The notes below the pieces were generated by a model. That model did not search any database and had not been told where the DNA came from. It saw only the letters and a list, made by a program, of their open reading frames with translations. A DNA stretch of 52,709 nucleotides from a virus (lineage: Duplodnaviria; Caudoviricetes). Each line of letters opens with the position of its first letter. Within the stretch, counting starts at the first letter, position 1. Both the position numbers and the translations under genes were made by a program. The stretch is taken from positions 1 to 52,709 of IMG/VR virus record IMGVR_UViG_3300044529_000018; one strand, written 5' to 3'. Positions 14,309 to 31,837 of this stretch are shown here, piece by piece.

Positions 14309-14316
14309 ATCAATTT

Positions 14317-14984: not shown

Positions 14985-15009
14985 ATCAGCGACATAAAAT
15001 CTAACTAAA

Positions 15010-15319: not shown

Positions 15320-15343
15320 GACGGTAAAAACGAAAGGACAAAT

Positions 15344-16286: not shown

Positions 16287-16392
16287 GCGTCAAACCAAAA
16301 TGTGAGCACGGATACACTGACCCGGACGAGTTTTGCCCAGAATGCCCGTACCCAAGTGCGCCAAGCGAATTACCTGCAACGCATGGTTCGGC
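16262..16392 (-). repeat. attC-like site 15
   Basis: GCAGAAC..GTTCAGGTA / TACCTGCAAC..GTTCGGC. Confidence 0.8.
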
Positions 16393-16591: not shown

Positions 16592-16649
16592 CACTCTGAC
16601 ATCCGAACTGCCAAGCGTTCCGCCGGTTGGCTCCATGCAGTTGTTGGGC
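16540..16649 (-). repeat. attC-like site 16
   Basis: GCCGAAC..GCATGAGCCGCCGGCGG / CCGCCGGTTGGCTCCATGC..GTTGGGC. Confidence 0.9.
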
Positions 16650-17279
16650 CGCGTTTTGGTGGCGTGCGAATTTTCGGGAATAGTCCGTGACGCCTTCGCT
16701 GCTCGCGGGTGGGATGCGTGGTCGTGTGACATACTGCCAACTGACAAACCCGGCCAACACTTCCAAGGTGACGTGCGCGACATCCTGCATGAAAGCTGGG
16801 ACTTGATGATAGCTCACCCGCCATGCACCTACCTATGCAACTCTGGCGTGCGGTGGCTGACCGAAGATGGTCCAGGTCACAACGGATATATCCGACGCAC
16901 GATGATGAGAGAAGGTGCTGAATTTTTCAAGTCGCTGCTCAATGCCGACATCCCGCATATCGCAATCGAAAACCCAATCCCACACAGATATGCGCTGCAA
17001 ATCATCGGCAGGAAATACGACCAAATCATCCAACCGTGGCAGCACGGTCATGGCGAGACAAAGGCAACCTGCCTCTGGCTGAAAAATCTCCCGAAACTGA
17101 AACCGTCAAACGTCGTGGAAGGACGCGAAGGCAAAGTCTGGAAAATGCCGCCAAGCCCTGACCGATGGAAAGAGCGCAGCAGAACCTACACCGGAATAGC
17201 TGAAGCTATGGCCGACCAGTGGACTCGCGCAACGCGGCCCAACACTGTATTATACGACTCCTCCGCAACTAAAAAATGA
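16584..17279 (+). CDS. Phage DNA cytosine methyltransferase-like protein (cassette-borne)
   Basis: VLVACEFSG, WDLMIAHPPC, IAIENP, IIQPWQHGH and RSRTYTGIAEAMADQW motifs. Confidence 0.8.
   Translation: MNNTLTSELPSVPPVGSMQLLGRVLVACEFSGIVRDAFAARGWDAWSCDILPTDKPGQHFQGDVRDILHESWDLMIAHPPCTYLCNSGVRWLTEDGPGHNGYIRRTMMREGAEFFKSLLNADIPHIAIENPIPHRYALQIIGRKYDQIIQPWQHGHGETKATCLWLKNLPKLKPSNVVEGREGKVWKMPPSPDRWKERSRTYTGIAEAMADQWTRATRPNTVLYDSSATKK
17237..17258 (-). other. attI-like site closing the main array
   Basis: Minus strand GTCGTATAA-TACAGTG-TTGGGC; TAA-N7-TT spacing as in attI1; no attC hairpin follows. Confidence 0.6.
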
Positions 17280-17590
17280 TAAACCATTACAATGCAACGA
17301 TAAGGAAAGAAGCCCGCAAGCGATGGTCATTGAACGCCGTTCGCGCAAAGGCTCGCATAAAAGCCGAACGAATGGCCGCGCCGATACTGGATGAACCTCC
17401 GGGGAAAGTATTCGTCCCAAAGCGAACCCGGCCCGACCTGAAAGTGATCCTGGAACGTAAGGACGGGATGAAAGTTCAATACTCGCTGCGCCTGTTTTAC
17501 GGCAAACTGATTGGCCAGCATCTCCAAATGTCACCCAAGCAGTTTGGCCGTAAGCTAGGAGCCATATTCCAACTGTGGGCAACACCATGA
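17276..17590 (+). CDS. Hypothetical basic protein
   Basis: ATGA overlap with the upstream gene. Confidence 0.6.
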   Translation: MINHYNATIRKEARKRWSLNAVRAKARIKAERMAAPILDEPPGKVFVPKRTRPDLKVILERKDGMKVQYSLRLFYGKLIGQHLQMSPKQFGRKLGAIFQLWATP

Positions 17591-17769
17591 AAGTAACCCG
17601 CTCAGGAATAATGTTCCACCCCCAAAGGAAGCGGCCCGAATTTGACGACGAGGAATTGCATCGCCGTTCACTTGCAGAAGAAGCACGCAAAAACAACAAC
17701 AACCGTCCCGCACAAGCTGTCGCAGGACAGCCACAGCGTTCTTTGATCGAAAATCAACAAGATGACTAA
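17587..17769 (+). CDS. Hypothetical protein
   Basis: ATGA overlap with the upstream gene. Confidence 0.5.
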   Translation: MKVTRSGIMFHPQRKRPEFDDEELHRRSLAEEARKNNNNRPAQAVAGQPQRSLIENQQDD

Positions 17770-17832
17770 CCGTCATCCAACAGACAGTTGCCGCCCACTG
17801 TTTCGGGCGGCAGCTTGTGCGGGATAAATTCC

Positions 17833-18183
17833 ATGCAAACCTATGAATTCGACAATGCCAGCGCATCCTTCAAACGGCGAAACCCGCATCTATTTGGTGG
17901 CATGGCATCGGATACCGTCCTGCAACCGAATCCTGAGTATGAGCCAGTGGCAGAGGATGCGAGAGAAATTGTTGACCAAGCTCGCCGTCTTGTGCGCATT
18001 ACGAGCTTCCGCCTTCGGCTCTGTGACGAGCGAAACTTGTGGGATAAACATTTCGTCGATGCACTTGTCGAGGCTGGAATCATCTTTGATGACTCGCCGG
18101 AATTCTGTCAGATTGAAGTCAAACAGGAAGAAGTCAAAGACTGGAGGCTTGAGCGAACAGAAATAACCATTGAACCGATATGA
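17833..18183 (+). CDS. RusA-like Holliday junction resolvase
   Basis: RLCDERNL..KHFVDALVEAGIIFDDS. Confidence 0.7.
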   Translation: MQTYEFDNASASFKRRNPHLFGGMASDTVLQPNPEYEPVAEDAREIVDQARRLVRITSFRLRLCDERNLWDKHFVDALVEAGIIFDDSPEFCQIEVKQEEVKDWRLERTEITIEPI

Positions 18184-18491
18184 CCTACACCACAAAACAA
18201 CTTGAAGCAGCTCTGGCTAAGATGCTGCCGGAGAAAATCTACATCGCTCCAAATGGACTGCTGGCTTGGCGACAGCCCCCGAAGAAAGAGCATCATTATG
18301 ACGACGAGCAGTACAATGTCGATGAGACATCGTTGTTGCAGATTTGTTGGTGGATTGAGGAAAGGCTACTAGGCTTTAAGCCAGAGTGTTATCTAATTCA
18401 ATTAAAGGCGAGTGGAGTTGATGCTTGGCACGCCACATGGCAACAGCGTACAGTCGAACTGGCGAAGGTGAAAGGGGTCGAGATTGCATGA
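18180..18491 (+). CDS. Hypothetical protein
   Basis: ATGA overlaps with both neighbours. Confidence 0.7.
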   Translation: MTYTTKQLEAALAKMLPEKIYIAPNGLLAWRQPPKKEHHYDDEQYNVDETSLLQICWWIEERLLGFKPECYLIQLKASGVDAWHATWQQRTVELAKVKGVEIA

Positions 18492-18694
18492 TGTCGTCGC
18501 ATCGCCAATCCATGACCCCTGAAGAAGGAGCCGCGTTTGTAGAATATCGCAAGGCAGACCAGGCGGCGCGAGCCATCCTGAACGACTTCATAAAATCCTC
18601 ACCAGACTACCAAGCCGCTTACAAACTTTCGCAGTTGAAATATTGGGCCTGGGAATCCATCCACAACAAAAACGAAAAGGCCGGCGAGCACTGA
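18488..18694 (+). CDS. Hypothetical protein
   Basis: ATGA overlap; last gene of the + strand operon. Confidence 0.6.
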   Translation: MMSSHRQSMTPEEGAAFVEYRKADQAARAILNDFIKSSPDYQAAYKLSQLKYWAWESIHNKNEKAGEH

Positions 18695-18720
18695 AACGAA
18701 TGCTCCGCCGGCCCTTTCTT
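18675..18720. terminator. Bidirectional intrinsic terminator
   Basis: AAAA-GGCCGGCGAGCA..TGCTCCGCCGGCC-CTTTCTT between convergent operons. Confidence 0.7.
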
Positions 18721-18727
18721 GGATCAA

Positions 18728-19354
18728 TCAGGAAACCGTTACGGTGAACACGCGAGCCGCTTTCGACGTGCCATCGGTGACGGTCACCGTGACAGCGGAA
18801 ACGCCGGTCTGCGAGGCCACCGGGGTAAACGAGATGGAACCGGACGGGTCGGGGTTGGTGTACACCACGTCAGGATTCGGAACCACATCGGTATTGCTGG
18901 AAACCGCGGTCACGCTCAAGGTTGCTCCCTTGGCCGTGGTGGAGATCCCGGCGATGCCAACGGTCTGAATCCCGGCGTCCTTGGCCACAGGTAGGTCGGC
19001 AATCGCGTCCAAGGTGACGGCGCCCTTCGGGGTAAGGTCGGCAGCAATCTTCGCGGAAACCGTTCCGGCGAGTGCGTTCAACTGGTCGATTTCGGGTTGC
19101 AGCTCAACCGCGCCATTGCTGGCGATAATTGCTGCAATCACGGGGGCGAGAGCGGCTTCGACCGCTGTTTCAACTGCGAGAGGGAGCGCGGCGATAGCAG
19201 CGTCCAGGTCTTGTTTTGTAGCCATAATGTTTAGCCTTTCTTCAATCCGGTGAATGATTTTTTGGTTATTGTGTGCGTTCCACTCAAGAATCTCACGCAG
19301 GACGCGAGTCAAGAGAGAAATTGATTCGGACAATTTGTGTTCCTCATCGTGCAT
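18728..19354 (-). CDS. Protein with helical N-terminus and C-terminal Ig/cadherin-like domain
   Basis: LSVTAVSSNTDVVPNP..GSISFTP..VTVTVTDG..FTVTV. Confidence 0.65.
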   Translation of the reverse strand: MHDEEHKLSESISLLTRVLREILEWNAHNNQKIIHRIEERLNIMATKQDLDAAIAALPLAVETAVEAALAPVIAAIIASNGAVELQPEIDQLNALAGTVSAKIAADLTPKGAVTLDAIADLPVAKDAGIQTVGIAGISTTAKGATLSVTAVSSNTDVVPNPDVVYTNPDPSGSISFTPVASQTGVSAVTVTVTDGTSKAARVFTVTVS

Positions 19355-19409
19355 TCATTGACGTTACCACAAGGATTCCGTTTCACAATGGGGTGTTTAC
19401 CGTATCCGG

Positions 19410-19631
19410 CTATTTACCGGAGGCAATCTGGGCATCCGTTTTCCAGGCATCGGTGCTGGCCTTGGCTATCAGAGCGTCAATGAATGACTTTTCAAGGTCG
19501 GTAGTCCATTCCCCCGTCTGCTTGGCCGCTGAACGAATGGCGGCGATGAAAGCGATGAGACTGGATATTCCAGTCGTGATGGTTGGGATCAGTTGGATGA
19601 GTCCGGGAAGGAGGGCGAGGATTGCGGCCAT
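19410..19631 (-). CDS. Small membrane protein (lysis region)
   Basis: Hydrophobic N-terminal half. Confidence 0.6.
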   Translation of the reverse strand: MAAILALLPGLIQLIPTITTGISSLIAFIAAIRSAAKQTGEWTTDLEKSFIDALIAKASTDAWKTDAQIASGK

Positions 19632-19635
19632 GGCG

Positions 19636-20082
19636 TCAATGGGTTGGAGATTGGACTATCACGACCCAGCTCTGAGCCTGATTGAGAGCGGCCTGAAGGT
19701 CGGCCACGACCTGAATCAGGATGTTGCTATGGGAGGAATTCGATCTGTAAATCACCTTGGCGTCATCCACCATTTTTATCATGGCCAGCCCTCGAGGAAG
19801 CGTATTGGTGGATTCAATGGTGATGGGAGTCCGAATCCATTCGCAGAAGGAATGGAACGCCGGGGCATTCGTCATCCAAAAGTCGCGGTTTGAATTGTCT
19901 AGTTCAACGGCAGTATTGAAAGCTGAAACCGAAACCGTTTCCAACCGCTCCGCATTGACCACCATAGGATCAGACCCCGAGGCGACGGTGGAACAGCCGG
20001 TGGAAATCAGAATTGACGCAACAAAACCAATCATCAGCACGAATACGACAATGACCGGCCAAATGGGTTTGATGAATCTCAT
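19636..20082 (-). CDS. Lipoprotein, possible spanin component
   Basis: Hydrophobic signal ending ISTGC; ATGA overlap with the holin-like gene. Confidence 0.6.
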   Translation of the reverse strand: MRFIKPIWPVIVVFVLMIGFVASILISTGCSTVASGSDPMVVNAERLETVSVSAFNTAVELDNSNRDFWMTNAPAFHSFCEWIRTPITIESTNTLPRGLAMIKMVDDAKVIYRSNSSHSNILIQVVADLQAALNQAQSWVVIVQSPTH

Positions 20083-20315
20083 GGGATGGGGGGCTTGGTT
20101 GGTGGATTGGATGGAGGAACCGCTGGTGCGCTCTGGCTGGAGTCTCCGGCGAACAAGAGGCCCAGACCGGCCAGAATTCCCAGCACCGCAGTGTTCCACA
20201 GCGCCTCAGGGTCGGCTGCCGATTTGTATGAGTAGATGAGGTGAACCACGGAGCCGACTATCATCACAATACCAGCCGATGTGGTCTTCCAGCTTGCCGC
20301 CAGATTTTTAATCAT
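20079..20315 (-). CDS. Holin-like protein (two TM helices)
   Basis: SWKTTSAG..GLGLLFAGD. Confidence 0.6.
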   Translation of the reverse strand: MIKNLAASWKTTSAGIVMIVGSVVHLIYSYKSAADPEALWNTAVLGILAGLGLLFAGDSSQSAPAVPPSNPPTKPPIP

Positions 20316-20346
20316 ATGCGCATTCTATCCTGCAACCACGCCCGTG

Positions 20347-20733
20347 TCAACGGGGAACGAGGTTGGCGATGGTTATGGGGATGATTTCGGGAGCGCCATT
20401 GGTCAGCTCCTTAAGGGTCTTGAACACCGTCTTCTGGTTCTCAATGACCGTGTTCAGGCGGTTGGTGATGATGCTGTTGTCAGACACCAACCAATTGATG
20501 GAAGCCGCATTGGAAGTCACCGCCTCCAGAAGGGTGGTGTGGAATCTGGAATTCTCGGCGCGAAACTGCTCCCCCTCGATTCGGAGCAGCTTAATCTGGT
20601 CCGGGGTCTCGCTTATGTGGACGGCCTTGACCATGCCCACCCACCCTATGCCCATCAAGGTGGCAATGGAGCCGATGGTTACAATCGGCTTCTGCCACTC
20701 CCCAAGTCTTACCCATTTGTGCTTCATACTCAC
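20347..20733 (-). CDS. Membrane-anchored coiled-coil protein
   Basis: One TM segment followed by heptad repeats. Confidence 0.6.
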   Translation of the reverse strand: MSMKHKWVRLGEWQKPIVTIGSIATLMGIGWVGMVKAVHISETPDQIKLLRIEGEQFRAENSRFHTTLLEAVTSNAASINWLVSDNSIITNRLNTVIENQKTVFKTLKELTNGAPEIIPITIANLVPR

Positions 20734-20765
20734 AGTGTCGTCTAGACTGATTTAATTGCGAGCGT

Positions 20766-21422
20766 TCATTCCTTGGCAAATCGGTAGAACATCTTTGGAT
20801 TCGTGGTGTCCACTTCCAGCATGGTAGTGTGTCCATCCACGATCATGTAATTGGACCAGTTCTTCAGGTTCGGACTGGACTGAATCCAATACACATCGCC
20901 GGGCCTGCCGGGGTGGTTCGTGTCATACTCCCAAGCCAGCGTCATCTTGAAAGCGGGCCTGCAGACAATCGCATTGGTCTGCCATGGCGTAGAGTTTGTG
21001 AAAATCGTCTGGGTGCAGCCATTGGAATTCGTGATGGTATAGCCGCTTGGCGGGCGATGATTGACGACCGCAGCCGGACCAATCGACCGCTCGGCCTTCG
21101 GCGGCATCGGCGGCAACGTCATTGTTTTTGGCACACTATTTGTCATTGCCTTCAGGTTGGCGTCCGTCTGGGCTTTCAACTGCGCATCAGTGTCGCTTCC
21201 CTCGCTCTCGGTGTTCAGCTTGAGCACCCAGTTGTCGTGCCTCACGTTTTTTACGTACCACCAGCCATCATCGGTTGGCCTGCTGACGTTCGGCTGTCCT
21301 CCTCGGTCAACACCCGGAGCCACTTCTGAGAAGTTCGGTATTCCGTGAAACCCAGTTGCAGTGCTGCATCCTGATTCAATCATCAGCACCAATCCCAAAA
21401 CGATGTAGCGCAGGAGGGTCAT
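20766..21422 (-). CDS. Lipoprotein, apparent chimera (truncated phosphatase-like N-terminus + ..YWIQSSPNLKNW..FYR C-terminal domain)
   Basis: Signal ending ESGC; GIPNFSEVAPGVDRGGQP but no CX5R catalytic motif. Confidence 0.5.
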   Translation of the reverse strand: MTLLRYIVLGLVLMIESGCSTATGFHGIPNFSEVAPGVDRGGQPNVSRPTDDGWWYVKNVRHDNWVLKLNTESEGSDTDAQLKAQTDANLKAMTNSVPKTMTLPPMPPKAERSIGPAAVVNHRPPSGYTITNSNGCTQTIFTNSTPWQTNAIVCRPAFKMTLAWEYDTNHPGRPGDVYWIQSSPNLKNWSNYMIVDGHTTMLEVDTTNPKMFYRFAKE

Positions 21423-23272
21423 GGAAAAACACCGCTGTACTGGATTTTGTTGGTTATCAGAACACCGCCCACCGAAAGGGTGATATATAAATTTGTACAC
21501 CCCGGCCCTCCGACGCTAAGTACTCCGTAACCAACAAAAGTTGGAGCGGCCAGAGTGTTTGTAGCTATGGCCAGGCTTCCATTCGCAACAAAATTCGATG
21601 CCACAACCGTTCCGGTAGTGGGGGCGGCATCGAAGTAGGTCTGCCCGGCTGGTACAATTGACATTTGAATCTCGTGGTTTTCCAAACCGACAAACTCAAA
21701 GCTTGGAGCCGTTACTGTGCTGGAACCGTACCATCTCCATATCTTATAATGAGGGTCTTGTCTTAGCCCATAACTGCCATACGACGGCTCCAATGTACCG
21801 CTCCCACCACCAATCGTGAATGAATTGGTAAACCCACTCACATGGCTTGGAAAATTAGCAGTTCCCAGCACCGTAAGTTTGTTGAAGAAATCCCCAAACA
21901 ACGGGTCGGTCCCATTACCAGCAGCCGCAAAGTCATGGAAAGAAAAACTTGCGTTCGGCGGAATACAGAAAGGCGGAACATATCCACCAGAGAACACTGG
22001 AACTTCACCACCATTGCAACTGAAGGAACCATTGTAAACCCTGGATTGATCGTCAAAGTCAATAATCGTAGCTCCATTAGCATGGCCCTCACAACACACA
22101 TTTAAATCAACCGATGCGTTCGCTATTCCTGGGGTTATTCCTATATTCGTGCTATTTCTGAACATGTGTCCAAAAACCTTATCGTCGCCACCACCGTAAC
22201 CTACATAAATACCAATGCTGTTGAAGCCACAAGTTACATCTTCTATTTTTAGATGCTCGTTCATCACCACTCCTTTGTTATATCCATATATTTCGGAGTT
22301 TTGCATTACGTTCCCACCGTTATTTTGGCGCACAGGGAACATCACCCCAACAGCATTATATGGACTCGGTGTAATCGTGTTGAAAAATCCAGGGCGGAAG
22401 TCCACTCCAAGTTCACAGTGGTCAATAAACGTCTGACCTCCATATTCTGACCAAATAGCATTAAGTCTAGGCCAGCATGGTTGCAGCAACGCAATGTTTA
22501 TTATGTACAGGTTGACAGATGAGAACTGGCTGACCGGTCCACTTTGACCAAAGATTGAATTATTAGTGGTGTTCAGGGGCGTAGTTGGAACGCAGAAAAT
22601 GACCGAACCAGACCTGACTGGACTCATATTGTTAAAGAACGTGCTATAAGACTGGCGCATTGGTCCTGCACCATAGAATGTTATAGACGAAATCGCATTT
22701 GTTGATGCTTGGTTTGCATTTGGCATCGAAATCATGCTCCACTGATTAGTGCCGGTGTGAATAAGAGGACCGACTAACATGTAGGGACGTGATGAGTTGC
22801 TTAAAACGACTATCGTATTAAAGTTAGTTGAGCAGTAATTGCTGATACTCTGGAAGTTTGTGAGGCTGCTTGTCCCAAAGTTTGCCATTGCCGACTGCGT
22901 TGCGTCAAAAGTAGCTGAATTTGAGATTCCGACATATTGAGAACTTATATAGTCGGTTATCATGCTTAGAACATAGTTTGTATTTGCGGTACTAGTGTAA
23001 ATAAGCATCCACTTTCCCACATCAGATGCCACAAATGGACCACTTGGAGAATAGATTTGGGCTTGTCCGTTTGTACACGAAATGTCGTACAACGTCACCA
23101 TGTCCGCTTTGGCTCCAAACTGCTCAGGTGTTATCGTTGAAACAAGGCTATTCGCCACCTTCGCCGTGTCGGCGTTGCCAGTGAGCGGCCCGTTAAAGTT
23201 TCCCCAGTACGAAATTGCTCCAAACACCGGCATGGAGCACGTTAGAAGTAATGCCATCAGTAGTTTTTTCAT
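21419..23272 (-). CDS. Tailspike-like beta-helix (pectin-lyase-fold) protein
   Basis: ITPEQFGAKAD motif; N/S/T/G-rich; AT-rich relative to the genome; N-terminal signal peptide. Confidence 0.65.
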   Translation of the reverse strand: MKKLLMALLLTCSMPVFGAISYWGNFNGPLTGNADTAKVANSLVSTITPEQFGAKADMVTLYDISCTNGQAQIYSPSGPFVASDVGKWMLIYTSTANTNYVLSMITDYISSQYVGISNSATFDATQSAMANFGTSSLTNFQSISNYCSTNFNTIVVLSNSSRPYMLVGPLIHTGTNQWSMISMPNANQASTNAISSITFYGAGPMRQSYSTFFNNMSPVRSGSVIFCVPTTPLNTTNNSIFGQSGPVSQFSSVNLYIINIALLQPCWPRLNAIWSEYGGQTFIDHCELGVDFRPGFFNTITPSPYNAVGVMFPVRQNNGGNVMQNSEIYGYNKGVVMNEHLKIEDVTCGFNSIGIYVGYGGGDDKVFGHMFRNSTNIGITPGIANASVDLNVCCEGHANGATIIDFDDQSRVYNGSFSCNGGEVPVFSGGYVPPFCIPPNASFSFHDFAAAGNGTDPLFGDFFNKLTVLGTANFPSHVSGFTNSFTIGGGSGTLEPSYGSYGLRQDPHYKIWRWYGSSTVTAPSFEFVGLENHEIQMSIVPAGQTYFDAAPTTGTVVASNFVANGSLAIATNTLAAPTFVGYGVLSVGGPGCTNLYITLSVGGVLITNKIQYSGVFP

Positions 23273-23276
23273 AAAA

Positions 23277-23516
23277 TTATATCCATGATCCGGTCCACAG
23301 CCACAATCGGCTGTTGCTTGTGTCCACCGCAATTCCCAATGTTCCTGCCGGCGGGGTGAACGTTGGAGCGCCGCCGGAATAGTCCGCATACCCGCCCTGA
23401 ATGCCGCCGTTTGTACCACCTCCACCCCCATTGCCAAGGGCTATCAGGATTTTCACCAGTAATTGCCGCTCCGTGTCCGATGTTTGCGGAGTCAGCTTTG
23501 AATAGTTTTCAGCCAT
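23277..23516 (-). CDS. Small virion-associated protein
   Basis: C-terminus paralogous to that of 34062..34349. Confidence 0.65.
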   Translation of the reverse strand: MAENYSKLTPQTSDTERQLLVKILIALGNGGGGGTNGGIQGGYADYSGGAPTFTPPAGTLGIAVDTSNSRLWLWTGSWI

Positions 23517-23517
23517 A

Positions 23518-23673
23518 TCACAGAAGGGTTTTCAAAATTTTGACCAGCAAAATCCTGGTCGGATCAGTGTAAAGCGGGGCGTTGGCGGTGTTTCCCTTGC
23601 TCTGTCCGATCTTGGTGAGAATGCGCGCCCAGAGTTGCCGTTTCGTGTCCCCGATTTGTGGCAGCGTGCTCAC
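23518..23673 (-). CDS. Small protein with two D-x-x-R-x-L-x-x-(K/R)-I-L repeats (not in the ORF track)
   Basis: GTG start; DTKRQLWARIL and DPTRILLVKIL; the same motif occurs in the next gene. Confidence 0.6.
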   Translation of the reverse strand: MSTLPQIGDTKRQLWARILTKIGQSKGNTANAPLYTDPTRILLVKILKTLL

Positions 23674-23676
23674 AGG

Positions 23677-23907
23677 TCAGGAATCCGCAGCTTCTCCGCC
23701 CATCATCGAGGCTTGCATATTCTTGGCTTCATCCTTGAAATCGGGCCGGTATTTGGGCTTTTCCGCGTCATCTGCCTTCACGTCGCCCATCTGCGTCAGG
23801 CAAACCTTGTCACCACACAACTTGAAGCTGCAAACGAGGTCGAATGTTTCCCCATCGGCAGTCCCTTCGGGCACCGCGTTCGGCAGAGGTTTGAATTTGA
23901 TGTCCAT
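23677..23907 (-). CDS. Hypothetical protein
   Basis: Packed ORF downstream of the capsid gene. Confidence 0.65.
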   Translation of the reverse strand: MDIKFKPLPNAVPEGTADGETFDLVCSFKLCGDKVCLTQMGDVKADDAEKPKYRPDFKDEAKNMQASMMGGEAADS

Positions 23908-23909
23908 GA

Positions 23910-24542: not shown

Positions 24543-24552
24543 ACTGTGAGGG

Positions 24553-24581
24553 ACTTTAACATCCCCCACAAGTTATGTCAA
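24553..24581 (-). promoter_or_regulatory. Promoter for the HNH gene
   Basis: Minus strand TTGACA-17-TAAAGT. Confidence 0.6.
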
Positions 24582-24589
24582 GCTGTAGA

Positions 24590-25954
24590 TTACGAGCATG
24601 TTTGGCACGTCACATTTTGTGGACAGCGCAGGAACAGGAACATCCTTGCATAGTCTGGAAACACGGGCTTAAAGGCGTGCTTATACTGTGCAAAATGCCG
24701 TCCGTATTCGTGGAACGGGTCGGCCACGCCCGCGCAGCCGTCCATGCCAAGGAACGCATCATTGCCGGTGACGAACTTCCATTCGCCGTAATAATCCTGT
24801 GCATTCCACTTCATGCCGGGGGCGGTATTGACCGGGCGAAGGACTTCCTCCTCCATGTTCCACTTGGTCAGGATCGTGGCGGCTTCGACCGCGGCGATGT
24901 TCGGGTTGAGATAATCCGGGTTGGGGATGGCGACCTGGCCTTTGCCAAAGCCGGTGTCCACATTGCCGTTCTGCATGATCCACGGGGAAACGCGAACGAG
25001 CGTCCCGGTGCCATCGGTGATTTTCCAGCGCGGAGGCGTCGCGGTGATGACATGCCGGTAGTTTTTCAGCACCCGGCTGGCACCCAGGCGGAGGATGACT
25101 TCGGCGGTGTCACCGAAACCCTCGTAGGAAAAGCGCAAATCCTCGCGCAATTCGGGGTTATTCAGGGCCAGTTGATTGCTGGCGTCGATGCCGATGAGTA
25201 GCGAGAACACAGGACCGGAGCCAAGCGAGCTGATCCAGCCGCCGGAATCTTCCGCCGTGGCGCCGGCGAGGACCAGAGGATGCACCTGCGAATCCAGCAA
25301 GGACTGGTCGAGTCCGCATTGCGGGGTCGTAACGCCGGTCAAATCAATGGACTGACCGGGAGGCTGGGTATTCGTGTTGCCGGCCGTGATGTTAACGGTG
25401 CCATTCGTATTGCCCGTAACCTTCGTGGCGTAGGAGCCGTACACGTTCTGGATGCGGTTGACGATGGAGCGGGTATTGCGCTGTTCGAGGCGCATGAAAT
25501 ACAGGTTCCAGAAGTCCACCGAGTTCCAGTGCAGGGTGAGGTCGGACTGACAGACCAGCGGCCCGCGCAGCCAGAAGGCTTCCGGGTTGTACTGGCGCTC
25601 CTGATAGCCGACGTTGGTATCCGTGAAATTCTTTATGCACGAACCGATGAATGTTGAGCCAGAATTAACAGTGATAGCCGACCAGCTTTCTTCCTCGGTA
25701 GTAGGCTCGGAACGGCCCACTTCAAAGGATGAACGCACCAGACCGGCGCCGATTGGCCATTCCGTGCGGGGGACGAGGTTAAGCCACGGGTCAAGCCATG
25801 TGGCGCGCTTGTAAAGCCGGGGACCGAGATCCTCGACGCGCATACGGAGCACGTCAAACGGGTTGGGACAAGCCGCGACACGCTTGAGCATCCGACGAGG
25901 AGCAAGACAAAGAATCACCAAATAGGCCAGAAAAGCTAAAAATAAAATGTGCAT
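24590..25954 (-). CDS. Major capsid protein (probable)
   Basis: Size, position downstream of the scaffold-like gene, and GC-rich third codon positions; fold not verified. Confidence 0.68.
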   Translation of the reverse strand: MHILFLAFLAYLVILCLAPRRMLKRVAACPNPFDVLRMRVEDLGPRLYKRATWLDPWLNLVPRTEWPIGAGLVRSSFEVGRSEPTTEEESWSAITVNSGSTFIGSCIKNFTDTNVGYQERQYNPEAFWLRGPLVCQSDLTLHWNSVDFWNLYFMRLEQRNTRSIVNRIQNVYGSYATKVTGNTNGTVNITAGNTNTQPPGQSIDLTGVTTPQCGLDQSLLDSQVHPLVLAGATAEDSGGWISSLGSGPVFSLLIGIDASNQLALNNPELREDLRFSYEGFGDTAEVILRLGASRVLKNYRHVITATPPRWKITDGTGTLVRVSPWIMQNGNVDTGFGKGQVAIPNPDYLNPNIAAVEAATILTKWNMEEEVLRPVNTAPGMKWNAQDYYGEWKFVTGNDAFLGMDGCAGVADPFHEYGRHFAQYKHAFKPVFPDYARMFLFLRCPQNVTCQTCS

Positions 25955-26162
25955 ATCAAAAATTGGTTGTTGTTGCGCGGATGAGTGCCACCACTTTGGG
26001 ACACAAATCTGGCGCTATTTACCGAACACACTGAAGAAATGTGCGGCGTGTGAATCCGCGTCGTTTCCGACATTCAGGCCAACTACCGTCTTGGGTGGCG
26101 CTTGTAGTGCGCGACCTGAATACTACGAGGATAAGAAAGCACGGACGGAAGGGTTTGTCAAA

Positions 26163-26375
26163 TCAGGCAGTTAAAACCCAACCGCTGTTTACTGATGCAC
26201 CGGAGGACCAAACAGCTTCCATCCCAACAGGACGAGCAGGATAAAAAGGAGCAGCGTATTTCCCAATGGGCGGAGTCCGCCGGAAGCCGGCCAGTTTGAC
26301 CACAGCCCGAATACGAGCCACAGCAGCATCAAAATCCAGTAAATTAAAGCGAATGACATGATTCAACTCTACCAT
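26163..26375 (-). CDS. Hypothetical protein
   Basis: Co-oriented ORF between the scaffold and capsid genes. Confidence 0.4.
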   Translation of the reverse strand: MVELNHVIRFNLLDFDAAVARIRAVVKLAGFRRTPPIGKYAAPFYPARPVGMEAVWSSGASVNSGWVLTA

Positions 26376-26409
26376 GCCAACAGCAGAAATAAATGGGGTG
26401 TTTTACTGA

Positions 26410-27618
26410 CTATTCCTGTGTCATCGTCGAGGCAATGTCCTTGATCCATCCCGCAGCCTGGCCGCGACCATCAAGGAAGTTGCTCTTTTTGGCCGGAGGC
26501 TGGCCGGCAGGCTTTTCGGCTCCCTCAGGGCCACCACCACCGCTGCTGGAACGGGGTTGCGCGGCTGTCAATCCGGCGACCTGATCTTCCAATGCCTTGA
26601 TTTTGTCCTGTGCCTCATGGTAGCGGGAAACCATTGCCGGAAGCGCGGCGGCATGAAGCGCGGCCCGCATCAACTGCTCGGGCGGTTGCTGGCCGAACAG
26701 AAGGTCTTTGGCGGATTTCAGGCGATCATCGACGCCCTTGTTCCATTCCTCGTCGCCGTCCCGCTTCTGGAAGATGAAAAGGCTGTCCTTGTCCTTGGGA
26801 TTTTGAAGCGTAGAAACGACGGTTGAAAAAGCGGATTCAGCCTTCTGGATGTTTGTCGCACGGGCGGATTCAGCATCCTTCCGCGCCTTTTCCTGACTGG
26901 CGGTGAAGTCGGTTTTGGCCAGTTGGATTTGGTTTTCCTTGTCCATCTCGATTTCCTGCAACTGATTGAGCACTCCGCCGATGCGGGATTGAGCGATGGG
27001 GGACAGTGTGGTGACAATTTCCTCCAACCGGGCCTGACGATACTCGTTGTCGGGCAGCTTGAGCAGGGATGCGATGGCTTCGGCATTGTCGGCACCGACG
27101 ATTTTCTTGGCCATCTCGACCTGGGCGCCGATTTTCTGGTCGTAGTACGTCTTGAAGCGGGGATGATTGGTGATGTCCACCAGCCGCAGGCGTTCGCTCA
27201 GTTCATCCGCCTGCTGTTGCAATTCGACGACGCGGGGATCATCGCCCGTGGCGTTGGGCTTGGGAGCCTTTTCCAGTTCCGCAATGCGTGCGTTGACCTT
27301 GGCCAGTTCCGACTCCTTTTCCTCGATGCGCTTTTTGTTGGCGGCACGAAAGGCATCCCAGTCCTTTGCCGTGCGCGGCATCTTTTCCTCGGGGGCCGGG
27401 GTTGGCGGAGTTGATTGCACTGCCGTCGCTGGCGGCGTGGCTGTTTCCGGCGGCACAACGGCAGGCTTTTCAACCGGAGGCGCGGGGTCGGGCGGGGGCG
27501 GAGTGGCATCGACATTGAGCGCCGGGAGCGCCTTGGTGAATTCTGCCGCGGCGGAGCGCGGGGAATAGTGCTGTCTGGCCGGCGGCGTGGGAGCGGTGGG
27601 CATGGCTATTTCGGGCAT
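26410..27618 (-). CDS. Capsid scaffolding-like protein
   Basis: Pro-rich N-terminus, long coiled coil, located upstream of the capsid gene. Confidence 0.65.
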   Translation of the reverse strand: MPEIAMPTAPTPPARQHYSPRSAAAEFTKALPALNVDATPPPPDPAPPVEKPAVVPPETATPPATAVQSTPPTPAPEEKMPRTAKDWDAFRAANKKRIEEKESELAKVNARIAELEKAPKPNATGDDPRVVELQQQADELSERLRLVDITNHPRFKTYYDQKIGAQVEMAKKIVGADNAEAIASLLKLPDNEYRQARLEEIVTTLSPIAQSRIGGVLNQLQEIEMDKENQIQLAKTDFTASQEKARKDAESARATNIQKAESAFSTVVSTLQNPKDKDSLFIFQKRDGDEEWNKGVDDRLKSAKDLLFGQQPPEQLMRAALHAAALPAMVSRYHEAQDKIKALEDQVAGLTAAQPRSSSGGGGPEGAEKPAGQPPAKKSNFLDGRGQAAGWIKDIASTMTQE

Positions 27619-27620
27619 AA

Positions 27621-27836
27621 TTATCCTTCAGGGTCGGTTGACGGTTTGATTTGGCCTGGAAATTGGGATGTCGGCGGTCGTATGGCGGGCTGTCCGAGTG
27701 CAGGCGATGCGGCACGCTTCCACAGGAAAGGGAACGAGCGCGGATTGCCGAACACCTCGTTATCGTCCGGCGGCGGGGCTTCACCAAGCTGTGCGCCGGT
27801 TATCGGGGTGTTCTTCGGTTTGATTGGCTCAGTCAT
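27621..27836 (-). CDS. Hypothetical Pro-rich protein
   Basis: Coupled to its neighbours. Confidence 0.55.
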   Translation of the reverse strand: MTEPIKPKNTPITGAQLGEAPPPDDNEVFGNPRSFPFLWKRAASPALGQPAIRPPTSQFPGQIKPSTDPEG

Positions 27837-28054
27837 TTCAATATACGACTGGTGGTCGGATAATCATTGTTCGGCACCATTTGGCGCGCCGCACGTTTGA
27901 GTTGCATTTCGTTCCAGCCGCCCTCGCTGTTTGCGAAGCGTTTAGCCCAGCGGATTAGCCGCTCGGCTGATTGCACCTCGCGGACGCGCTTCGTCAGCGC
28001 ATCGTTGCGTTTTCGCAGGCAGGTTATTTGTCGTTTTAGGACGGCTTGGCTCAT
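27833..28054 (-). CDS. Hypothetical protein in a decayed cassette locus
   Basis: Ends ..VPNNDYPT across an attI-like site. Confidence 0.55.
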   Translation of the reverse strand: MSQAVLKRQITCLRKRNDALTKRVREVQSAERLIRWAKRFANSEGGWNEMQLKRAARQMVPNNDYPTTSRILK

Positions 28055-28148
28055 ACGTTCGGCAATTTGATTTCGGGAGAATGCGCCTCGGGCGTCTGGG
28101 TCAATTCGGATGTTGGTTGGTGGCGCATCTGTGAGCTAATCGTTCACG
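27855..28148 (+). mobile_element. Decayed cassette array remnant (attI-like site + two partial attC)
   Basis: GTCGGATAA-TCATTG-TTCGGC at 27855; GGCTTGGCTCA..GTTCGGC at 28043-28063; AGAATGCGCC..GGCGCATCTGTGAGCTAATC-GTTCACG at 28078-28148. Confidence 0.55.
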
Positions 28149-28566
28149 CTCTTTTCCTTCCCTTCGATGAAAACTCCTCGACCAGCTTCGGGTCAACTTC
28201 CTCATTCAGGAATTCCGACTCCAATGCCTCCGGCGTCGGGTTGTGTCCGCCCATCGACTCGAAATCCGCAAGGGCCATGGTATAGCCTTCGCACCGCGCC
28301 TGCTGCAATGCGCGGGCATTCGTATCGCCGGAGGTCATCACCTGAAACGCCGGATGCGAATTATGTAACACCTGCAACATACGCCGCAAAAGTGGTGAAG
28401 TTAAAGCCCCGTGCGCCTGCTCGGTCAACCCCTTGTCCCCGCGCCATTGATCCAAGGTCAATGAACCGAGTTCGGTTTCCACAATCACAACCCTTCGTTG
28501 CGGCGGCGGTGTGGGACTGGCGGCGGACTTTGGCTTTGGCCACAAATTGAACATTGATGTACTCAA
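28144..28566 (-). CDS. Hypothetical protein (head module)
   Basis: ORF whose stop overlaps the attC core. Confidence 0.65.
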   Translation of the reverse strand: MSTSMFNLWPKPKSAASPTPPPQRRVVIVETELGSLTLDQWRGDKGLTEQAHGALTSPLLRRMLQVLHNSHPAFQVMTSGDTNARALQQARCEGYTMALADFESMGGHNPTPEALESEFLNEEVDPKLVEEFSSKGRKRA

Positions 28567-28585
28567 ACCCTATTTTCATAATCTG

Positions 28586-29119
28586 TCAAGCAGTTTTTAC
28601 GCCCTCAATCACGCTGGTCTGAATATACATGGCTTCGACCTGATTGATTATTGCGCCGTGCCTTTCCACTCCCACCAGCTCAGGGTAATTGGATTCGCCA
28701 AGGCAAACCTCATTGGCGGAGAATCCCCGTGCCGTCAGGCACACCAGCATCGCGTCCACCGTCCAGATGGCCACATGGCCCCAGTCCTCGATGATGGACG
28801 CCAGCGACCCTTCAATGGTTGGCGGGCGGTTGGTCCACGGATTGAATTCTTCCAGATACCGCTTGTTGTAGTGCCGGCAGATTCGCACCGGATCGGGAAA
28901 GGCCATCCGCAGGACGCCGCCAACTTTCAGCACCCGCCGGGCCTCAGCAAAGAATTTCCAGCCCTGTTGCGGGGTGACGTGCTCGATGACGTGCTCGGAA
29001 AACATAAAGTCCACCGAATCATCGGCAAATGGGAGTGGCAAGGTGATGTCCGTTTCCATGTCACGGTTATCCCAGCCCTCAAGTTTGTTTGGCCCGCAAC
29101 CCAGTTGAACTTTTTTCAT
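28586..29119 (-). CDS. SAM-dependent methyltransferase (type 11-like)
   Basis: QLGCG, LPFADDSVD..SEHVIEH and RRVLKVGGVLR motifs. Confidence 0.88.
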   Translation of the reverse strand: MKKVQLGCGPNKLEGWDNRDMETDITLPLPFADDSVDFMFSEHVIEHVTPQQGWKFFAEARRVLKVGGVLRMAFPDPVRICRHYNKRYLEEFNPWTNRPPTIEGSLASIIEDWGHVAIWTVDAMLVCLTARGFSANEVCLGESNYPELVGVERHGAIINQVEAMYIQTSVIEGVKTA

Positions 29120-30420
29120 AACCAGCCTTTCGGAATCTTCACCCTTTCGCCCCGGTTGTAAAGCGCATTATCACGCTGGATGATGCAGTTGGCGTCCAGA
29201 TCGCAGACTTCCTGAATCAGGTTTTTGCCCAATCCGCAGGCAATGGCCATCGGACAGCTCTGGTTTCCGATGAACAGCCGCCCGCCGGCAATGACGCGAG
29301 CCACGTCCAGCAACGTCGGGGTTTCGATGCGTGGAACGAAACCAAACTCGCACACGAATTGTTCATGCTCCTTCGCGGTGCCCACAAAAATCATTTCCTC
29401 ACCGTGACGCTGTACCAGTTCACCCCATTGAAAGCGGTCAGTCCGGTATCGTTCCGACCGGGAAATGACAATCGGCCGGCCCGGAACCTGAACCGGGAAG
29501 TCCACCGTCAGCCACGGCTTGTTCGTCGGACAATCAGTCTTGCACGCCCGCAGTTGCATGTTGAACAGGCTTTCGTCCTTGGCCTTGTTACCATTGACGA
29601 AATACTCACGGAAGCTGTTCATGTCGTAATCCGCATGGCTCAAACCATGATCGGTAAACGAGGCATTCCAGATATAGTCCTGCTTTTGGATGAATCCCAG
29701 GATGTTGCGCGTGCTTTCGATGGTCGGCTTGATTCGGGTTTCCCATTGGCTCGGGGCGATGTAGAACACCCCGCCGCCCAGCGCCTTGACCGCCGCCAGC
29801 CCGTAGATGATGTCCCCGGCGTCCCCTGAATGCTTGAACACCAGCGGACGGTCGGACTTGGCCGGCAGCTTGGTCAGGAACGAATGGAATCCAAACTGGC
29901 CCGTGTATCGCCCGTTTTCTATGGAAAATGCGGATGCGACTTCCGGCGGAGCGAACTTCATGCCGTACTCGGTTTCCAGTGTCAGCCGCCAGTCACGGCA
30001 AATCTTCTCGTCCTCCGGGTAAAACGGTCCTTCAAATCTTTCATCCTGCAATGCTTCCAGCAGCCGACGTGAGCGCAGGGAAAACCCGCCATTGCCAACA
30101 ATCCCATCCGTCCAGATGGCGCCAATGTAATCGTAATCCAGCCATTCGTTTTGCCATGCCTCATCGTTCAGGACATACCCATCCCATTGCGCAATCAGGA
30201 CATGCGTGGTTTGGACGTGCGTGGTTTGGACGTGCGCCAGCAGTTCCTTGATGATGAAGCGGGAGTAGTTTTCCAGCGATACAATCCGTTCCTTGGTTAT
30301 CAGGCAGACAGCGGGGAATCTTGCGTTGGCCGTCGATATTTTGACCGCACGCTTCGCCAATGCGGGTTTTCGGTCATCAATGACGGCAAGGGTGACATTT
30401 GCGATCCGCCGTTTCCATCG
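29116..30420 (-). CDS. DUF5672-like glycosyltransferase domain + GT9-like domain; probably reached by frameshift from the upstream ORF
   Basis: QWDGYV..DYDYIGA..VGNGGFSLRS..EDE..FGFH; then HSGDAGDII..FIGNQS; no ATG start, but the frame is open back to the T9 tract. Confidence 0.7.
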   Translation of the reverse strand, partial: RWKRRIANVTLAVIDDRKPALAKRAVKISTANARFPAVCLITKERIVSLENYSRFIIKELLAHVQTTHVQTTHVLIAQWDGYVLNDEAWQNEWLDYDYIGAIWTDGIVGNGGFSLRSRRLLEALQDERFEGPFYPEDEKICRDWRLTLETEYGMKFAPPEVASAFSIENGRYTGQFGFHSFLTKLPAKSDRPLVFKHSGDAGDIIYGLAAVKALGGGVFYIAPSQWETRIKPTIESTRNILGFIQKQDYIWNASFTDHGLSHADYDMNSFREYFVNGNKAKDESLFNMQLRACKTDCPTNKPWLTVDFPVQVPGRPIVISRSERYRTDRFQWGELVQRHGEEMIFVGTAKEHEQFVCEFGFVPRIETPTLLDVARVIAGGRLFIGNQSCPMAIACGLGKNLIQEVCDLDANCIIQRDNALYNRGERVKIPKGWL

Positions 30421-31433
30421 AAAAAAAAACTCTTTTTGTTCGGAGGGGTGTAAACATCCACCATCCGCTTTTGCAGGTCATCATGCGGAATCTCAATCCA
30501 CGCCGACGCCAGATCATTTATCCCCATCGTCACCAGCCACTTTTCATCCTTCAGCCGGCTACCGCACGGGAACACCACCAGCGGCTTGCTTTTGAACCAG
30601 ATGTCCTGTGGAGAACCAGCCAACAGCGGGTCAGGCGTGTAGCGCGTGATTCGGAATGGCGGCTGGGATTCAAACGCATACGCCCCCATGTAATACCGCC
30701 GATGGTAGGTGGCATCCGGTAGCGAGGAATGGAAGAAGGAAACATATTCGTCACCATCCTTGGTCAGGACCGGCGGGGTGCCGCCCCGGATGGTGCCATA
30801 CTTCCAGTCCAGCGGCTTGTCAGTCGGCGTCTTGTATTCGTGTTCAAACACCCCGGCGGGCGAGAACCGGCAGACAATGTGCGGGTCAGTGGAGTAAACC
30901 ATGTGCAACTGGTCTTGATGAAAGAACCAGAGCCAGTTTTTCTCCGCCCCGATGTCCTTGCCGATGGTGTTTCCGTTGTTGCCGTAGACCGGGTCGATGC
31001 GCTCGTTGGAAATCCAGGTGTTGCGACTCTCCATCCGGCCAATGACGTTCAAAACCTGATGCGCGCCGGTCCAGCCGCGACCACTGTTGATGACGACGAA
31101 ATTGCAGGCGGAAATGTAGGTGACGCCCTTGTGGAAAATCGCACGCGGATCTTCAGAGTGTTCCCGGTCGAAGAAATGGTGAAACTTGGTCTGCACCGCA
31201 TGGACGGGATTCAGGTTCGCATCCAGCAGGAAGCACATGATGTCGTTGAACCCGATTTTGACGCCCTTTTCATTCCGGCTACGTCGGGTGACCAGCCAAA
31301 GACCGTCCGGCCGCTCGGCCAGACCGCAGTTGAAATAGCACACGGTCGGGGATTGCAGCTTGCCGAAGTTGAAGAAACGGCAGGGCCATGCGGTTTGCTG
31401 TGTGATGGATGGATAAACGCGGGTATCGCTCAT
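30300..31433 (-). CDS. Five-bladed beta-propeller glycosidase/phosphorylase-like protein (GH130-like)
   Basis: FNCGL, EDPR, EKNW, RGGTPP, YYMGAY and VVFPCG motifs. Confidence 0.75.
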   Translation of the reverse strand: MSDTRVYPSITQQTAWPCRFFNFGKLQSPTVCYFNCGLAERPDGLWLVTRRSRNEKGVKIGFNDIMCFLLDANLNPVHAVQTKFHHFFDREHSEDPRAIFHKGVTYISACNFVVINSGRGWTGAHQVLNVIGRMESRNTWISNERIDPVYGNNGNTIGKDIGAEKNWLWFFHQDQLHMVYSTDPHIVCRFSPAGVFEHEYKTPTDKPLDWKYGTIRGGTPPVLTKDGDEYVSFFHSSLPDATYHRRYYMGAYAFESQPPFRITRYTPDPLLAGSPQDIWFKSKPLVVFPCGSRLKDEKWLVTMGINDLASAWIEIPHDDLQKRMVDVYTPPNKKSFFFDGNGGSQMSPLPSLMTENPHWRSVRSKYRRPTQDSPLSA

Positions 31434-31450
31434 TTCAGAATCTCATGTGT

Positions 31451-31472
31451 TTTGCATAATGCGTTGTTAGAC
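31451..31472 (+). other. attI-like site
   Basis: TTTGCATAA-TGCGTTG-TTAGAC, with TAA-N7-TT spacing. Confidence 0.55.
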
Positions 31473-31505
31473 AGCCGGGCGCATCCAGGTTGCAATCGTG
31501 AGCCT

Positions 31506-31793
31506 TCATGCGCCGCCTGCATCAGCTTTTTCGTTGGGCAGTAGTTCACTGATACCGTTTATGATTGCAAACCGCGTCAGAACTGCCACGGATGGGTTCC
31601 CTATCTTGAGGCGTGCATTCATGCTGTGGTGTTCCACGGTTTTCGCTGACAGCTTCAGCTCGATGGCGATTTCTTTGACGGTCGCTCCCTCAGAGAGTCG
31701 CTTGACTACTTGCCTTTCGCGCTCCGTCAGGAATGCCGAACCAAGCGGTCGAGCAGATGGGAGGTTCGGGTTTTCGTGAGTTGTCTTTGGCAT
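31506..31793 (-). CDS. LuxR-type HTH regulator (cassette-borne)
   Basis: LTERERQVVKRLSEGATVKEIAIELKLSAKTVEHH; starts in attC 17 and ends in an attC remnant. Confidence 0.88.
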   Translation of the reverse strand: MPKTTHENPNLPSARPLGSAFLTERERQVVKRLSEGATVKEIAIELKLSAKTVEHHSMNARLKIGNPSVAVLTRFAIINGISELLPNEKADAGGA

Positions 31794-31837
31794 AGGGTTG
31801 CTTGGGTTAATCGCCGCTGCTCACCTTGGCGTTACGG
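31735..31837 (+). repeat. attC-like site 17
   Basis: GCCGAAC-CAAGC-GGTCGAGCAG ... CTGCTCACC-TTGGC-GTTACGG; canonical extra C at position 4 of L''. Confidence 0.88.

Follow-up and report, generated by a model that had tools for sequence, protein, structure and literature searches.

Clusters of attC sites lacking an integron integrase (CALINs) are already known from phages. The text of Qi et al. 2023 (PMC9892861) describes integrons or CALINs in 21 of 10,705 NCBI phage genomes, with 17 CALINs of at least two attC sites, and reports IntI1-dependent recombination with attI1 for five of six phage attC sites. The attI1 site, as represented by an oligonucleotide in PMC2117344, is a simple site with two opposed boxes 3 nucleotides (nt) apart, a TAA-N7-TT spacing and a crossover at G↓TT (the arrow marks the exchange). 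Cassettes are also found outside the classical platform, at attG-type secondary sites and as single attC sites lacking an integrase (SALINs), single-cassette loci included (Loot et al., bioRxiv 10.1101/2022.09.11.507474). The subject here is IMG/VR virus record IMGVR_UViG_3300044529_000018, a linear Caudoviricetes sequence of 52,709 bases that was analysed over its full length (‘the window’). It carries three attI-like sites, or ‘pads’, at the ends of arrays of attC-like hairpins. It is probable that this phage stores accessory early genes as integron-type cassettes and that the three sites are attI-type ends where cassettes enter.

The window resembles the CALINs described in the text of Qi et al. 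2023 (PMC9892861) in having attC clusters without an integrase and a methyltransferase cassette, and in the view of phage attC sites as substrates of a bacterial IntI. It differs from them in its 14-cassette array, in bottom-strand open reading frames (ORFs) that start in attC loops, in three candidate attI-type ends without an integrase, and in having a relative with an IntI-like gene; Verrucomicrobia are not mentioned in that text. With the attI1 oligonucleotide of PMC2117344 the phage sites share the simple two-box geometry, but no sequence identity beyond it, and there is no integrase gene beside them. The attG sites, as described by Loot et al., have a right-hand motif that is absent here, whereas an attI-like left box recurs between phages. 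The sedentary integrons of Verrucomicrobiae have the same cassette signature and attC sites of the same family, recognizable by the R boxes, the GAGCC/GGTTGGCTC L box and an additional T on one side of the hairpin; in their attI, the AT-rich box stands 1-3 nt away from G↓TT. They are unlike the window in that host attC copies are near-identical to each other, whereas the phage copies have diverged, and in that host ORFs lie on the other strand, intI stands beside attI and the loops have no ATGA.

In the mechanism proposed here, a cassette would consist of a gene body plus one attC-like hairpin, joined to its neighbours through exchange by a tyrosine recombinase at G↓TT, which is AA↓C when read along the coding strand. 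The pads would be the entry points for new cassettes, attI-type ends formed by a GTT box and an AT-rich inverted box 3 nt away, with no hairpin. What remains of the original pad at the far end of an array would be its right half, TTACGG or TTCACG, and in array 1 this would be the CCGTAAC at 11931-11937. Since this right half is the reverse complement of the upstream stop, insertion would never harm the upstream gene, and the left half would give the adjacent cassette its last ~12 codons and a TGA overlapping the ATG of the next backbone gene. The acting enzyme would most likely be the integron integrase of a Verrucomicrobiae host, and a phage-encoded IntI may act in some relatives. That the pads recombine, that the three are independent and which integrase serves them are points that we infer.

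The cassette array of the early region

Array 1 is a true integron-type cassette array. Its 14 sites lie within 4.7 kb of a record that has no PF00589 match, an arrangement that falls within the definition of a CALIN (at least two clustered attC sites with no intI nearby). All 16 plus-strand sites of the window have NNNNAAC at their start and GTTNNNN at their end, that is, R'' and R' boxes in inverted orientation. In 13 of the 14 cassettes of array 1, the GTTNNNN box preceding the gene body and the NNNNAAC box following it are exact reverse complements, the exception being GTTAGGC at 14978 against GTGTAAC at 15228, and the next 3' arm begins 85-124 nt past the partner box. The inverted repeats reach 10-13 nt into coding sequence in several of these cassettes. 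When the partner boxes were compared using rougher first coordinates, they agreed at 47 of 52 variable positions, and boxes of one and the same hairpin at 24 of 52, a result reached by none of 100,000 permutations; a partner box of this kind accompanies 48 of 64 arms at 12 other viral loci. This pairing is expected because exchange at G↓TT inside a folded attC yields just that pattern, and we know of no other process that gives exact box pairing between cassette neighbours.

The attC sites were assessed with a position weight matrix (PWM) and with tests of duplex formation between arms; a first automatic hairpin screen recovered only five of them. Across 17 sites, a 5' and a 3' arm of the same site form a duplex of −16.9 kcal/mol on average, compared with −10.9 kcal/mol for arms taken from other sites (0 of 20,000 permutations reached this difference). 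The own partner arm ranks first in nine of the 17 and among the top three in 14. Thus, the arms covary, and structure is conserved over sequence, as is characteristic of the L boxes of attC sites.

The unpaired bases of these hairpins, which in attC sites mark the recombined (bottom) strand, fix the polarity of the arrays. They are concentrated in the coding-strand 3' arm in 12 of 16 sites of the window, and 27 of 29 host sites agree with this strand; the attC oligonucleotide shown in PMC2117344 carries its additional base in the top-strand 5' arm. By this measure, 17258, 27855 and 31451 are attI-side ends, with complete hairpins at the far ends. Taking the minus strand as top, array 1 reads as a non-hairpin site (17258 to 17244), G↓TTGGGC, then 14 cassettes with one complete attC apiece, and finally G↓TTACGG. 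The orientation given in an initial annotation of this DNA is consistent, because the reverse reading leaves the last cassette without a hairpin and the first site without a partner.

The genes are placed unusually with respect to the hairpins. Phage cassette genes lie on the same strand as the GGTTGGCTC arm, as indicated by methyltransferase homology, operon context and open frames, whereas in two host arrays the longer open frame is opposite that arm in 11 of 13 and nine of 11 cassettes. The phage cassettes are therefore inverted relative to those of the host, their coding strand being the attC bottom strand. A test of which strand holds the longest open frame agrees weakly, with seven window cassettes for the arm strand, one against and six ties, and 28 against 15 with five ties at the other viral loci. 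An ATGA lies between the R boxes in 15 of 16 window sites (8755-17243), where about 0.47 of 100-nt stretches on that strand would be expected to contain one, and in none of 29 host attC loops (L218). In many cases this loop ATGA is where one ORF stops and the following one starts, the two codons overlapping. The R'' box is translated in frame as x-Asn (in P-N-A-K-L-T tails), and from the 3' arm come N-terminal motifs, QRVVR and PPVGSxxLL among them.

Two extra attC-like sites upstream of the Erf gene bracket a single cassette with gene 9031-9480 (DUF7222). Its boxes are partners (8873 GTTCGGC / 9661 GCCGAAC), and the R' box of the second site, GTTAGGG at 9774, is without one. Beyond this cassette, a promoter-like TTGACA-N17-CATAAT (about 9973-10003) follows an ORF ending at 9977. 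The first cassette of array 1 (12047-12093) is an empty cassette with no gene of its own; its 33-nt body is a perfect 11-bp stem (GTTAGATGTCC...GGACATCTAAC).

The attI-like ends and the genes that flank them

The strings and coordinates quoted in the initial annotation, CCG-TAA-C at 11931-11937 and the sites at 17237-17258, 27855-27875 and 31451-31472, are all present on direct reading. The position of site 1 is set independently by the partner of the last cassette (16643 GTTGGGC / 17237 GCCCAAC, an inverted repeat of up to 13 nt), and no hairpin (3') arm follows the site. On the coding strand, the three pads read AAC-ACT-GTATTAT, AAC-AAT-GATTATC and AAC-AAC-GCATTAT, with the AT-rich box 3 nt from G↓TT. 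They have the simple organization of an attI, a G↓TT R box with a nearby inverted L box and no hairpin, and the TAA-N7-TT spacing noted initially is that of the attI1 oligonucleotide in PMC2117344, shortened to N6 in site 2. A further property of attI, its location beside intI at the end of the array, is absent from the window, which has no tyrosine recombinase, and is found in the relative L002. Direct repeats of the DR1/DR2 type were not identified at the phage sites, no systematic search for them having been made. Judged on sequence, site 1 is very probably of the attI type, site 3 probably and site 2 possibly.

The pads are closely fitted to the reading frames around them. Their left halves are 32-33 nt long and end in ATGA, and at all three the frame of the last cassette passes through the pad to the TGA, overlapped by the ATG of the next backbone gene. 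At pad 1 the cassette gene is a methyltransferase (16584..17279) that starts within the attC site at 16540-16649 and takes its final 12 codons and stop from the pad. On the other side, the far cores cover the upstream stops as the initial annotation had stated: the TAA of the exonuclease gene, GTTACGG on the plus strand at 31831-31837 over the stop of gene 31832..32134, and GTTCACG on the plus strand at 28142-28148 over the TGA of gene 28144..28566. Its observation that two loci share the core GTTACGG is also borne out, these being the far ends of arrays 1 and 3. On the coding strand, the AA↓C crossover lies beyond the stop codon in each case (past TAA in the exonuclease gene and in gene 31832..32134, past TGAA in gene 28144..28566), so that insertion would leave the upstream gene intact. 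Thus, the proposal of landing pads that spare the upstream gene stands as regards the position of the crossover, and no empty pad was found to complete it.

The likeness between the far ends of arrays 1 and 3 extends past the core. The first arm is 79% alike over 28 nt (inverted repeat I4), and the exonuclease gene and gene 31832..32134 have similar DNA over their final ~20 nt (11916-11937; 31831-31850; CTGATATT...GCCGTAA), although the encoded proteins are unrelated.

The term ‘arrays’ of the initial annotation suits array 1 and does not suit the other two loci. Array 2 has one hairpin, whose 5' arm clearly belongs to the attC family and whose CGTGAAC overlaps the TGA stop of gene 28144..28566. 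The hairpin folds with −6.9 kcal/mol (z +0.51) and falls under the 3'-arm PWM threshold. GCCGAAC stands in place of the R' box, so that the 73-aa ORF is bracketed by a direct, not an inverted, repeat. Array 3 has one cassette, whose boxes GTTCGGC / GCCCAAC match at six of seven positions. In its pad-adjacent hairpin, which has no R' box, the L' arm continues into the GTCTAAC of the pad (5'-arm PWM score 14.8; fold −13.5 kcal/mol, z −1.33). The site at its far end (31735..31837) has a 3'-arm PWM score of 17.9-19.4, and its own arms rank just 10th of 17.

Table 1. Positions of the arrays, attI-like sites and flanking genes in the window
Feature	Position	Strand	Remarks
Array 1	11931..17243	+	14 attC-like sites (92-131 nt), 14 cassettes
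Array 1, attC-like sites 1-7	11931-12053, 12087-12199, 12584-12692, 12856-12976, 13197-13304, 13439-13569, 13756-13883	+	
Array 1, attC-like sites 8-14	14200-14308, 14863-14984, 15228-15319, 15643-15766, 15915-16006, 16262-16392, 16540-16649	+	
CCGTAAC, far end of array 1	11931..11937	+	Top (minus) strand reads G↓TTACGG; recurs with flanks at 31831-31837
Two extra attC-like sites	8755-8879 and 9662-9780	+	PWM scores 29.5 and 32.1; outside the range of the initial annotation
attI-like site 1	17237..17258	-	GTCGTATAATACAGTG↓TTGGGC; crossover between 17243 and 17242
attI-like site 2	27855..27875	+	GTCGGATAATCATTG↓TTCGGC
attI-like site 3	31451..31472	+	TTTGCATAATGCGTTG↓TTAGAC
ORF of 73 amino acids (aa) between pad 2 and hairpin	27833..28054	-	Flanked by direct repeat TGCCGAAC; no family
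Single attC-like hairpin of array 2	28057..28148	-	5' arm like that of site 12856-12976 (AGCTCACAGA)
Hairpin adjacent to pad 3	31473..31539	-	R'' GCCCAAC (31539 to 31533), paired L box, no GTT-type R' box
LuxR/GerE-type regulator gene, sole cassette of array 3	31506..31793	-	Pfam GerE 1e-13
attC-like site, far end of array 3	31735..31837	-	R'' CCGTAAC (31837 to 31831) overlaps TAA of gene 31832..32134
Primase/helicase	4388-6322		Family match (Pfam/PHROG)
Erf-like protein	10465-11232		Family match (Pfam/PHROG)
YqaJ-type exonuclease gene	11229..11936	+	Pfam YqaJ 1.9e-19, phrog_149 9e-30; TAA stop 11934-11936 within first R box
DNA methyltransferase gene, pad-adjacent cassette of array 1	16584..17279	+	phrog_757 1.1e-60
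Backbone gene downstream of pad 1, 104 aa	17276..17590	+	ATG overlaps the TGA that ends the last-cassette read-through

Host integrons, related phage arrays and genome setting

A motif built from three 3' arms of the window gave, among the matches listed, clustered matches in metagenome-assembled genomes of Verrucomicrobiae. One genome (G001) has 257 matches against none for a reversed control, and these are classical arrays of near-identical attC sites, one of them beside an integron integrase (TIGR02249, 326 bits with a cut-off of 265; the N-terminal part is in another frame). The attC family of the window is thus homologous to that of host arrays next to intI. The integron integrase family TIGR02249 scores above its cut-off in 53 of the 151 genomes that were sampled from the host order.

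Upstream of intI, 16 putative attI sites were read among 25 integrase genes of the host order and that of G001, lying 129-211 nt away (682 nt in G001). In twelve of the 16, the exact partner of the GTTNNNN box lies 229-796 nt beyond it and precedes an attC arm. On the bottom strand these sites read AAC, 1-3 nt, and an AT-rich box (for example GTTATTA, GTATTAT, GATAATG or GATATTC), which the pads resemble; GATAGGC/GTTAGGC repeats are found upstream of them. The sample from which the phage came also has short, deep contigs of host-type attC (loose ends at 13226 and 14957). Some genomes of the host order (L227, L246, L247, L249) have a second attC type, AAC-CATGCGCTGCAGCGAACC on the top strand. 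This type corresponds to the GCAGCGCGTGGTT-type 3' arms of the window, so that the phage array mixes attC types that are separate among host genomes.

The 3'-arm PWM finds 11 sites in one other viral locus (L072), eight in a second (L014) and four to six in six others. Among eight clear array ends in other records, five were judged attI-like, two ambiguous and one not; attI-like ends occur in G159, L067, L051 and at two places in L002. Each pad has its own counterpart among them. The array end of G159, a relative with an Erf protein 69% identical and an exonuclease 49% identical, has AAC-AACGCATTAT-N6-CACATGAGATT in common with site 3. The second site of L002 (site b), which reads AAC-AATGATTAAACGAAC, has AAC-AATGATTA in common with site 2, and the array end of L067 shares ...ACGACTC with site 1. 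Site 2 is also similar to site 1. A scan of viral contigs for the site-3-type pattern returned L079 only. An attC of G159 (L251; 1613-1706, minus strand) is almost letter for letter the attC repeat of G001, which suggests a recent exchange or a host of the G001 lineage.

L002 (record G152; 74,992 bases, CheckV completeness 100%, exonuclease 51% identical) links such an end to an integrase. A 12-nt inverted repeat encloses its last cassette, which ends in GCCCAAC-AAGGATTATC, 28 nt before the ATG of an IntI-like gene. The product, of 317 aa, gives a full-length TIGR02249 match of 247 bits, short of the 265-bit cut-off. Among proteins of solved structure, VchIntIA is its best match (2a3v; 1.6e-40), and its identity to an IntI of the host order is 36%. 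The layout of integrase, attI and attC orientation is canonical, and only the cassette genes are on the other strand. L002 has two tyrosine recombinases 1.3 kb apart (3518-4465 and 5739-6692), one of them the IntI-like protein and the other best matched by a XerA type (56 bits), with no good fit to any integron model. In nine other array-bearing viral records, three of which are complete with terminal repeats, there is no match to the integrase family. Array orientation, likeness to host-order attI and to other phage array ends, and the adjacency in L002 support the initial view of the three sites as attI-like and at the attI side.

The window has a CheckV completeness estimate of 93%, with genes on the plus strand to ~19.3 kb, on the minus strand to ~41.4 kb and then on the plus strand again. 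Besides the genes in Table 1, a RusA-like protein, an HNH endonuclease and a methyl- and glycosyltransferase cluster at 28.6-33.7 kb can be recognized. Arrays 2 and 3 are located within this minus-strand cluster (28586-33658), which has two methyltransferases, a DUF5672 protein, a GH130-like protein and a glycosyltransferase and is possibly a glycan-modifying accessory module. No Pfam or PHROG family was matched by genes 17276..17590, 28144..28566 and 31832..32134, so that the status of the latter two as core phage genes, given in the initial annotation, is presumptive. Relatives of the first and the last of these were sought in viral contigs, and relatives of protein 30300-31433 in five array-bearing viral records, and none were found; megablast of 9000-20000 against GenBank phages gave no match. 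When 25 window proteins were compared by tblastn with the retrieved loci, real relatives were found for Erf only. Cassette ORF 15679-15957 had a single weak match of 31 aa in L009 (E 5e-5), and the other cassette ORFs had none.

Competing explanations and significance

A 2688-nt contig from the third of three peat runs, with a depth of 23, provides an indication of cassette mobility. It matches the window at 13876-14210 only, with 13 differences and four gaps, and this segment is exactly one cassette body with both R boxes, the contig differing on both sides. Its upstream arm has the unusual AGTGGCTGTTG of the window arm, and its downstream arm is different. At the sequence level, the contig would fit a cassette made up of the upstream hairpin and the body.

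Several results weigh against a system of working pads. There is no tyrosine recombinase in the whole record (no PF00589 match, at 93% completeness). The contigs of the three peat runs (Logan, searched with 11850-31849) contain no joints within arrays, no empty pads and no variants in cassette content; as these are assembled contigs only, rare excision products cannot show in them, and one low-support joint (26665 to 28403, with a 21-nt side) was disregarded. The 21-nt left half of pad 1 has no match in metagenome contigs. Exonuclease relatives with the empty junction predicted by the initial annotation were sought in metagenome contigs, which gave 10 loci. Relatives 49-78% identical have no pad at the exonuclease junction, showing instead a plain ATGA/TGA, and those nearest in sequence (78%) are short contigs in which an ordinary ATGA forms the junction; all are too distant to refute the prediction. 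The ~20-nt likeness before the crossovers of arrays 1 and 3 suggests that one array end, if not more, was copied en bloc, and on this sequence pattern the arrays could have arrived as blocks.

The signals themselves are also uneven. Just six of 16 R' boxes fit the strict GTTRRRY consensus, and whole-site folding energy is unremarkable, with z below −2 in just three of 19 sites. ATAAT occurs within 14 nt 5' of 13 of the 1774 GTT sites in the window, and the spaced pattern ATAAT-N4-5-GTT occurs five times against 1.6 expected, three of the five being the initially annotated sites; the maximum in 200 resamplings was six, so that this short, AT-rich motif lies within the resampled range and would not stand alone. 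The other viral loci were found with a motif derived from the window and are hence a biased sample. The comparison with attI sites beside Verrucomicrobiota intI, which had been suggested at the outset, gives a tentative family resemblance to sites picked by eye, of which four of 16 lack a confirming partner. Arrays 2 and 3 are small and irregular, and in both the attC nearest the pad has a flipped R box, which the model leaves unaccounted for.

Alternatively, the cassettes may be real but the pads remnants of a single ancestral platform like that of L002, perhaps disused, whose integrase has been lost and whose array pieces have spread with their ends to other junctions by homologous or illegitimate recombination. 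The pad of L002 directly precedes the IntI-like gene, and the window has an unrelated gene there. CCGTAAC with the ~20 nt before it (CTGATATT...GCCGTAAC) lies within unrelated genes at arrays 1 and 3, which, together with the 79% likeness over 28 nt of the first arm, has the look of a copied block, and arrays 2 and 3 look decayed. Off-target and illegitimate recombination are also suggested for phage CALIN boundaries in the text of Qi et al. 2023 (PMC9892861). However, the left halves of the pads differ, and their closest relatives are in different phages (site 3 in G159, site 2 in site b of L002, site 1 in L067), which argues for several maintained site types; moreover, the reading frame, TGA stop and ATG overlap are retained at all three pads. 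We regard a single decaying platform as unlikely, if worth keeping in mind.

Entry of cassettes at attG-type secondary sites, at any GWT in a suitable context, would make the attI likeness incidental. Integrases can insert outside att sites, giving SALINs and small CALINs, according to the text of Loot et al. (bioRxiv 10.1101/2022.09.11.507474), and arrays 2 and 3 have that small size. This account is nevertheless very doubtful: GTT is present, but the CRGM at positions 6-9 is absent, the far ends having GCGT, GCGG and GCTC (the consensus is for IntI1 in E. coli only), and an AT-rich box 3 nt from the crossover, common to host attI and other phage array ends, is unexpected for random secondary sites. 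The hairpins and ends might, in turn, be expression signals only, serving in translational coupling, RNA processing or termination, or as a −10-like TATTAT box. The ATGA start/stop overlaps in 15 of 16 loops, the resemblance of the AT-rich boxes to −10 hexamers and the idea, put forward in the text of Qi et al. 2023 (PMC9892861), that attC sites are weak terminators would suit such a role. Expression alone is a most improbable explanation, since it leaves unaccounted for the exact inverted repeat of 7-13 nt around each gene body, the 257-copy arrays of the same repeat family beside bacterial integron integrases, and the recurrence of one cassette alone in another context. On the strength of the sequences compared here, landing pads would seem to be the best explanation of the three sites.

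In print, phage integron parts appear as rare, short clusters (Qi et al. 2023, in its text). Stop-codon pads, several attI-type sites in a phage without an integrase, bottom-strand cassette genes that start in attC loops and a link to Verrucomicrobiae were not found in the literature searched, the supplements of Qi et al. apart. The window and at least 11 other viral records add long arrays that form a variable early region, attC sites of a host family and a relative with an integrase-like gene. The inverted orientation of the genes bears on the still unsettled origin of integron cassettes.

It seems that the phage exchanges accessory genes by means of the recombination machinery of its host. 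If the pads work, this would be site-specific shuffling of phage genes beside homologous and illegitimate recombination, and a direct route of gene flow between host integrons and phages, with recombination sites fused with coding sequence, the stops lying in R boxes and the starts in attC loops. A broader and more tentative idea, which we hold with rather less than even confidence, is that phages of Verrucomicrobiae have their own pool of bottom-strand ‘antisense’ cassettes, with the ATG in the attC loop and ATGA-chained operons, inserted at several stop-codon attI-type pads by a host or phage IntI. Were this so, integron recombination would be a main generator of accessory-gene mosaicism in these phages, and the pads would let any cassette be translated without harm to its neighbours.

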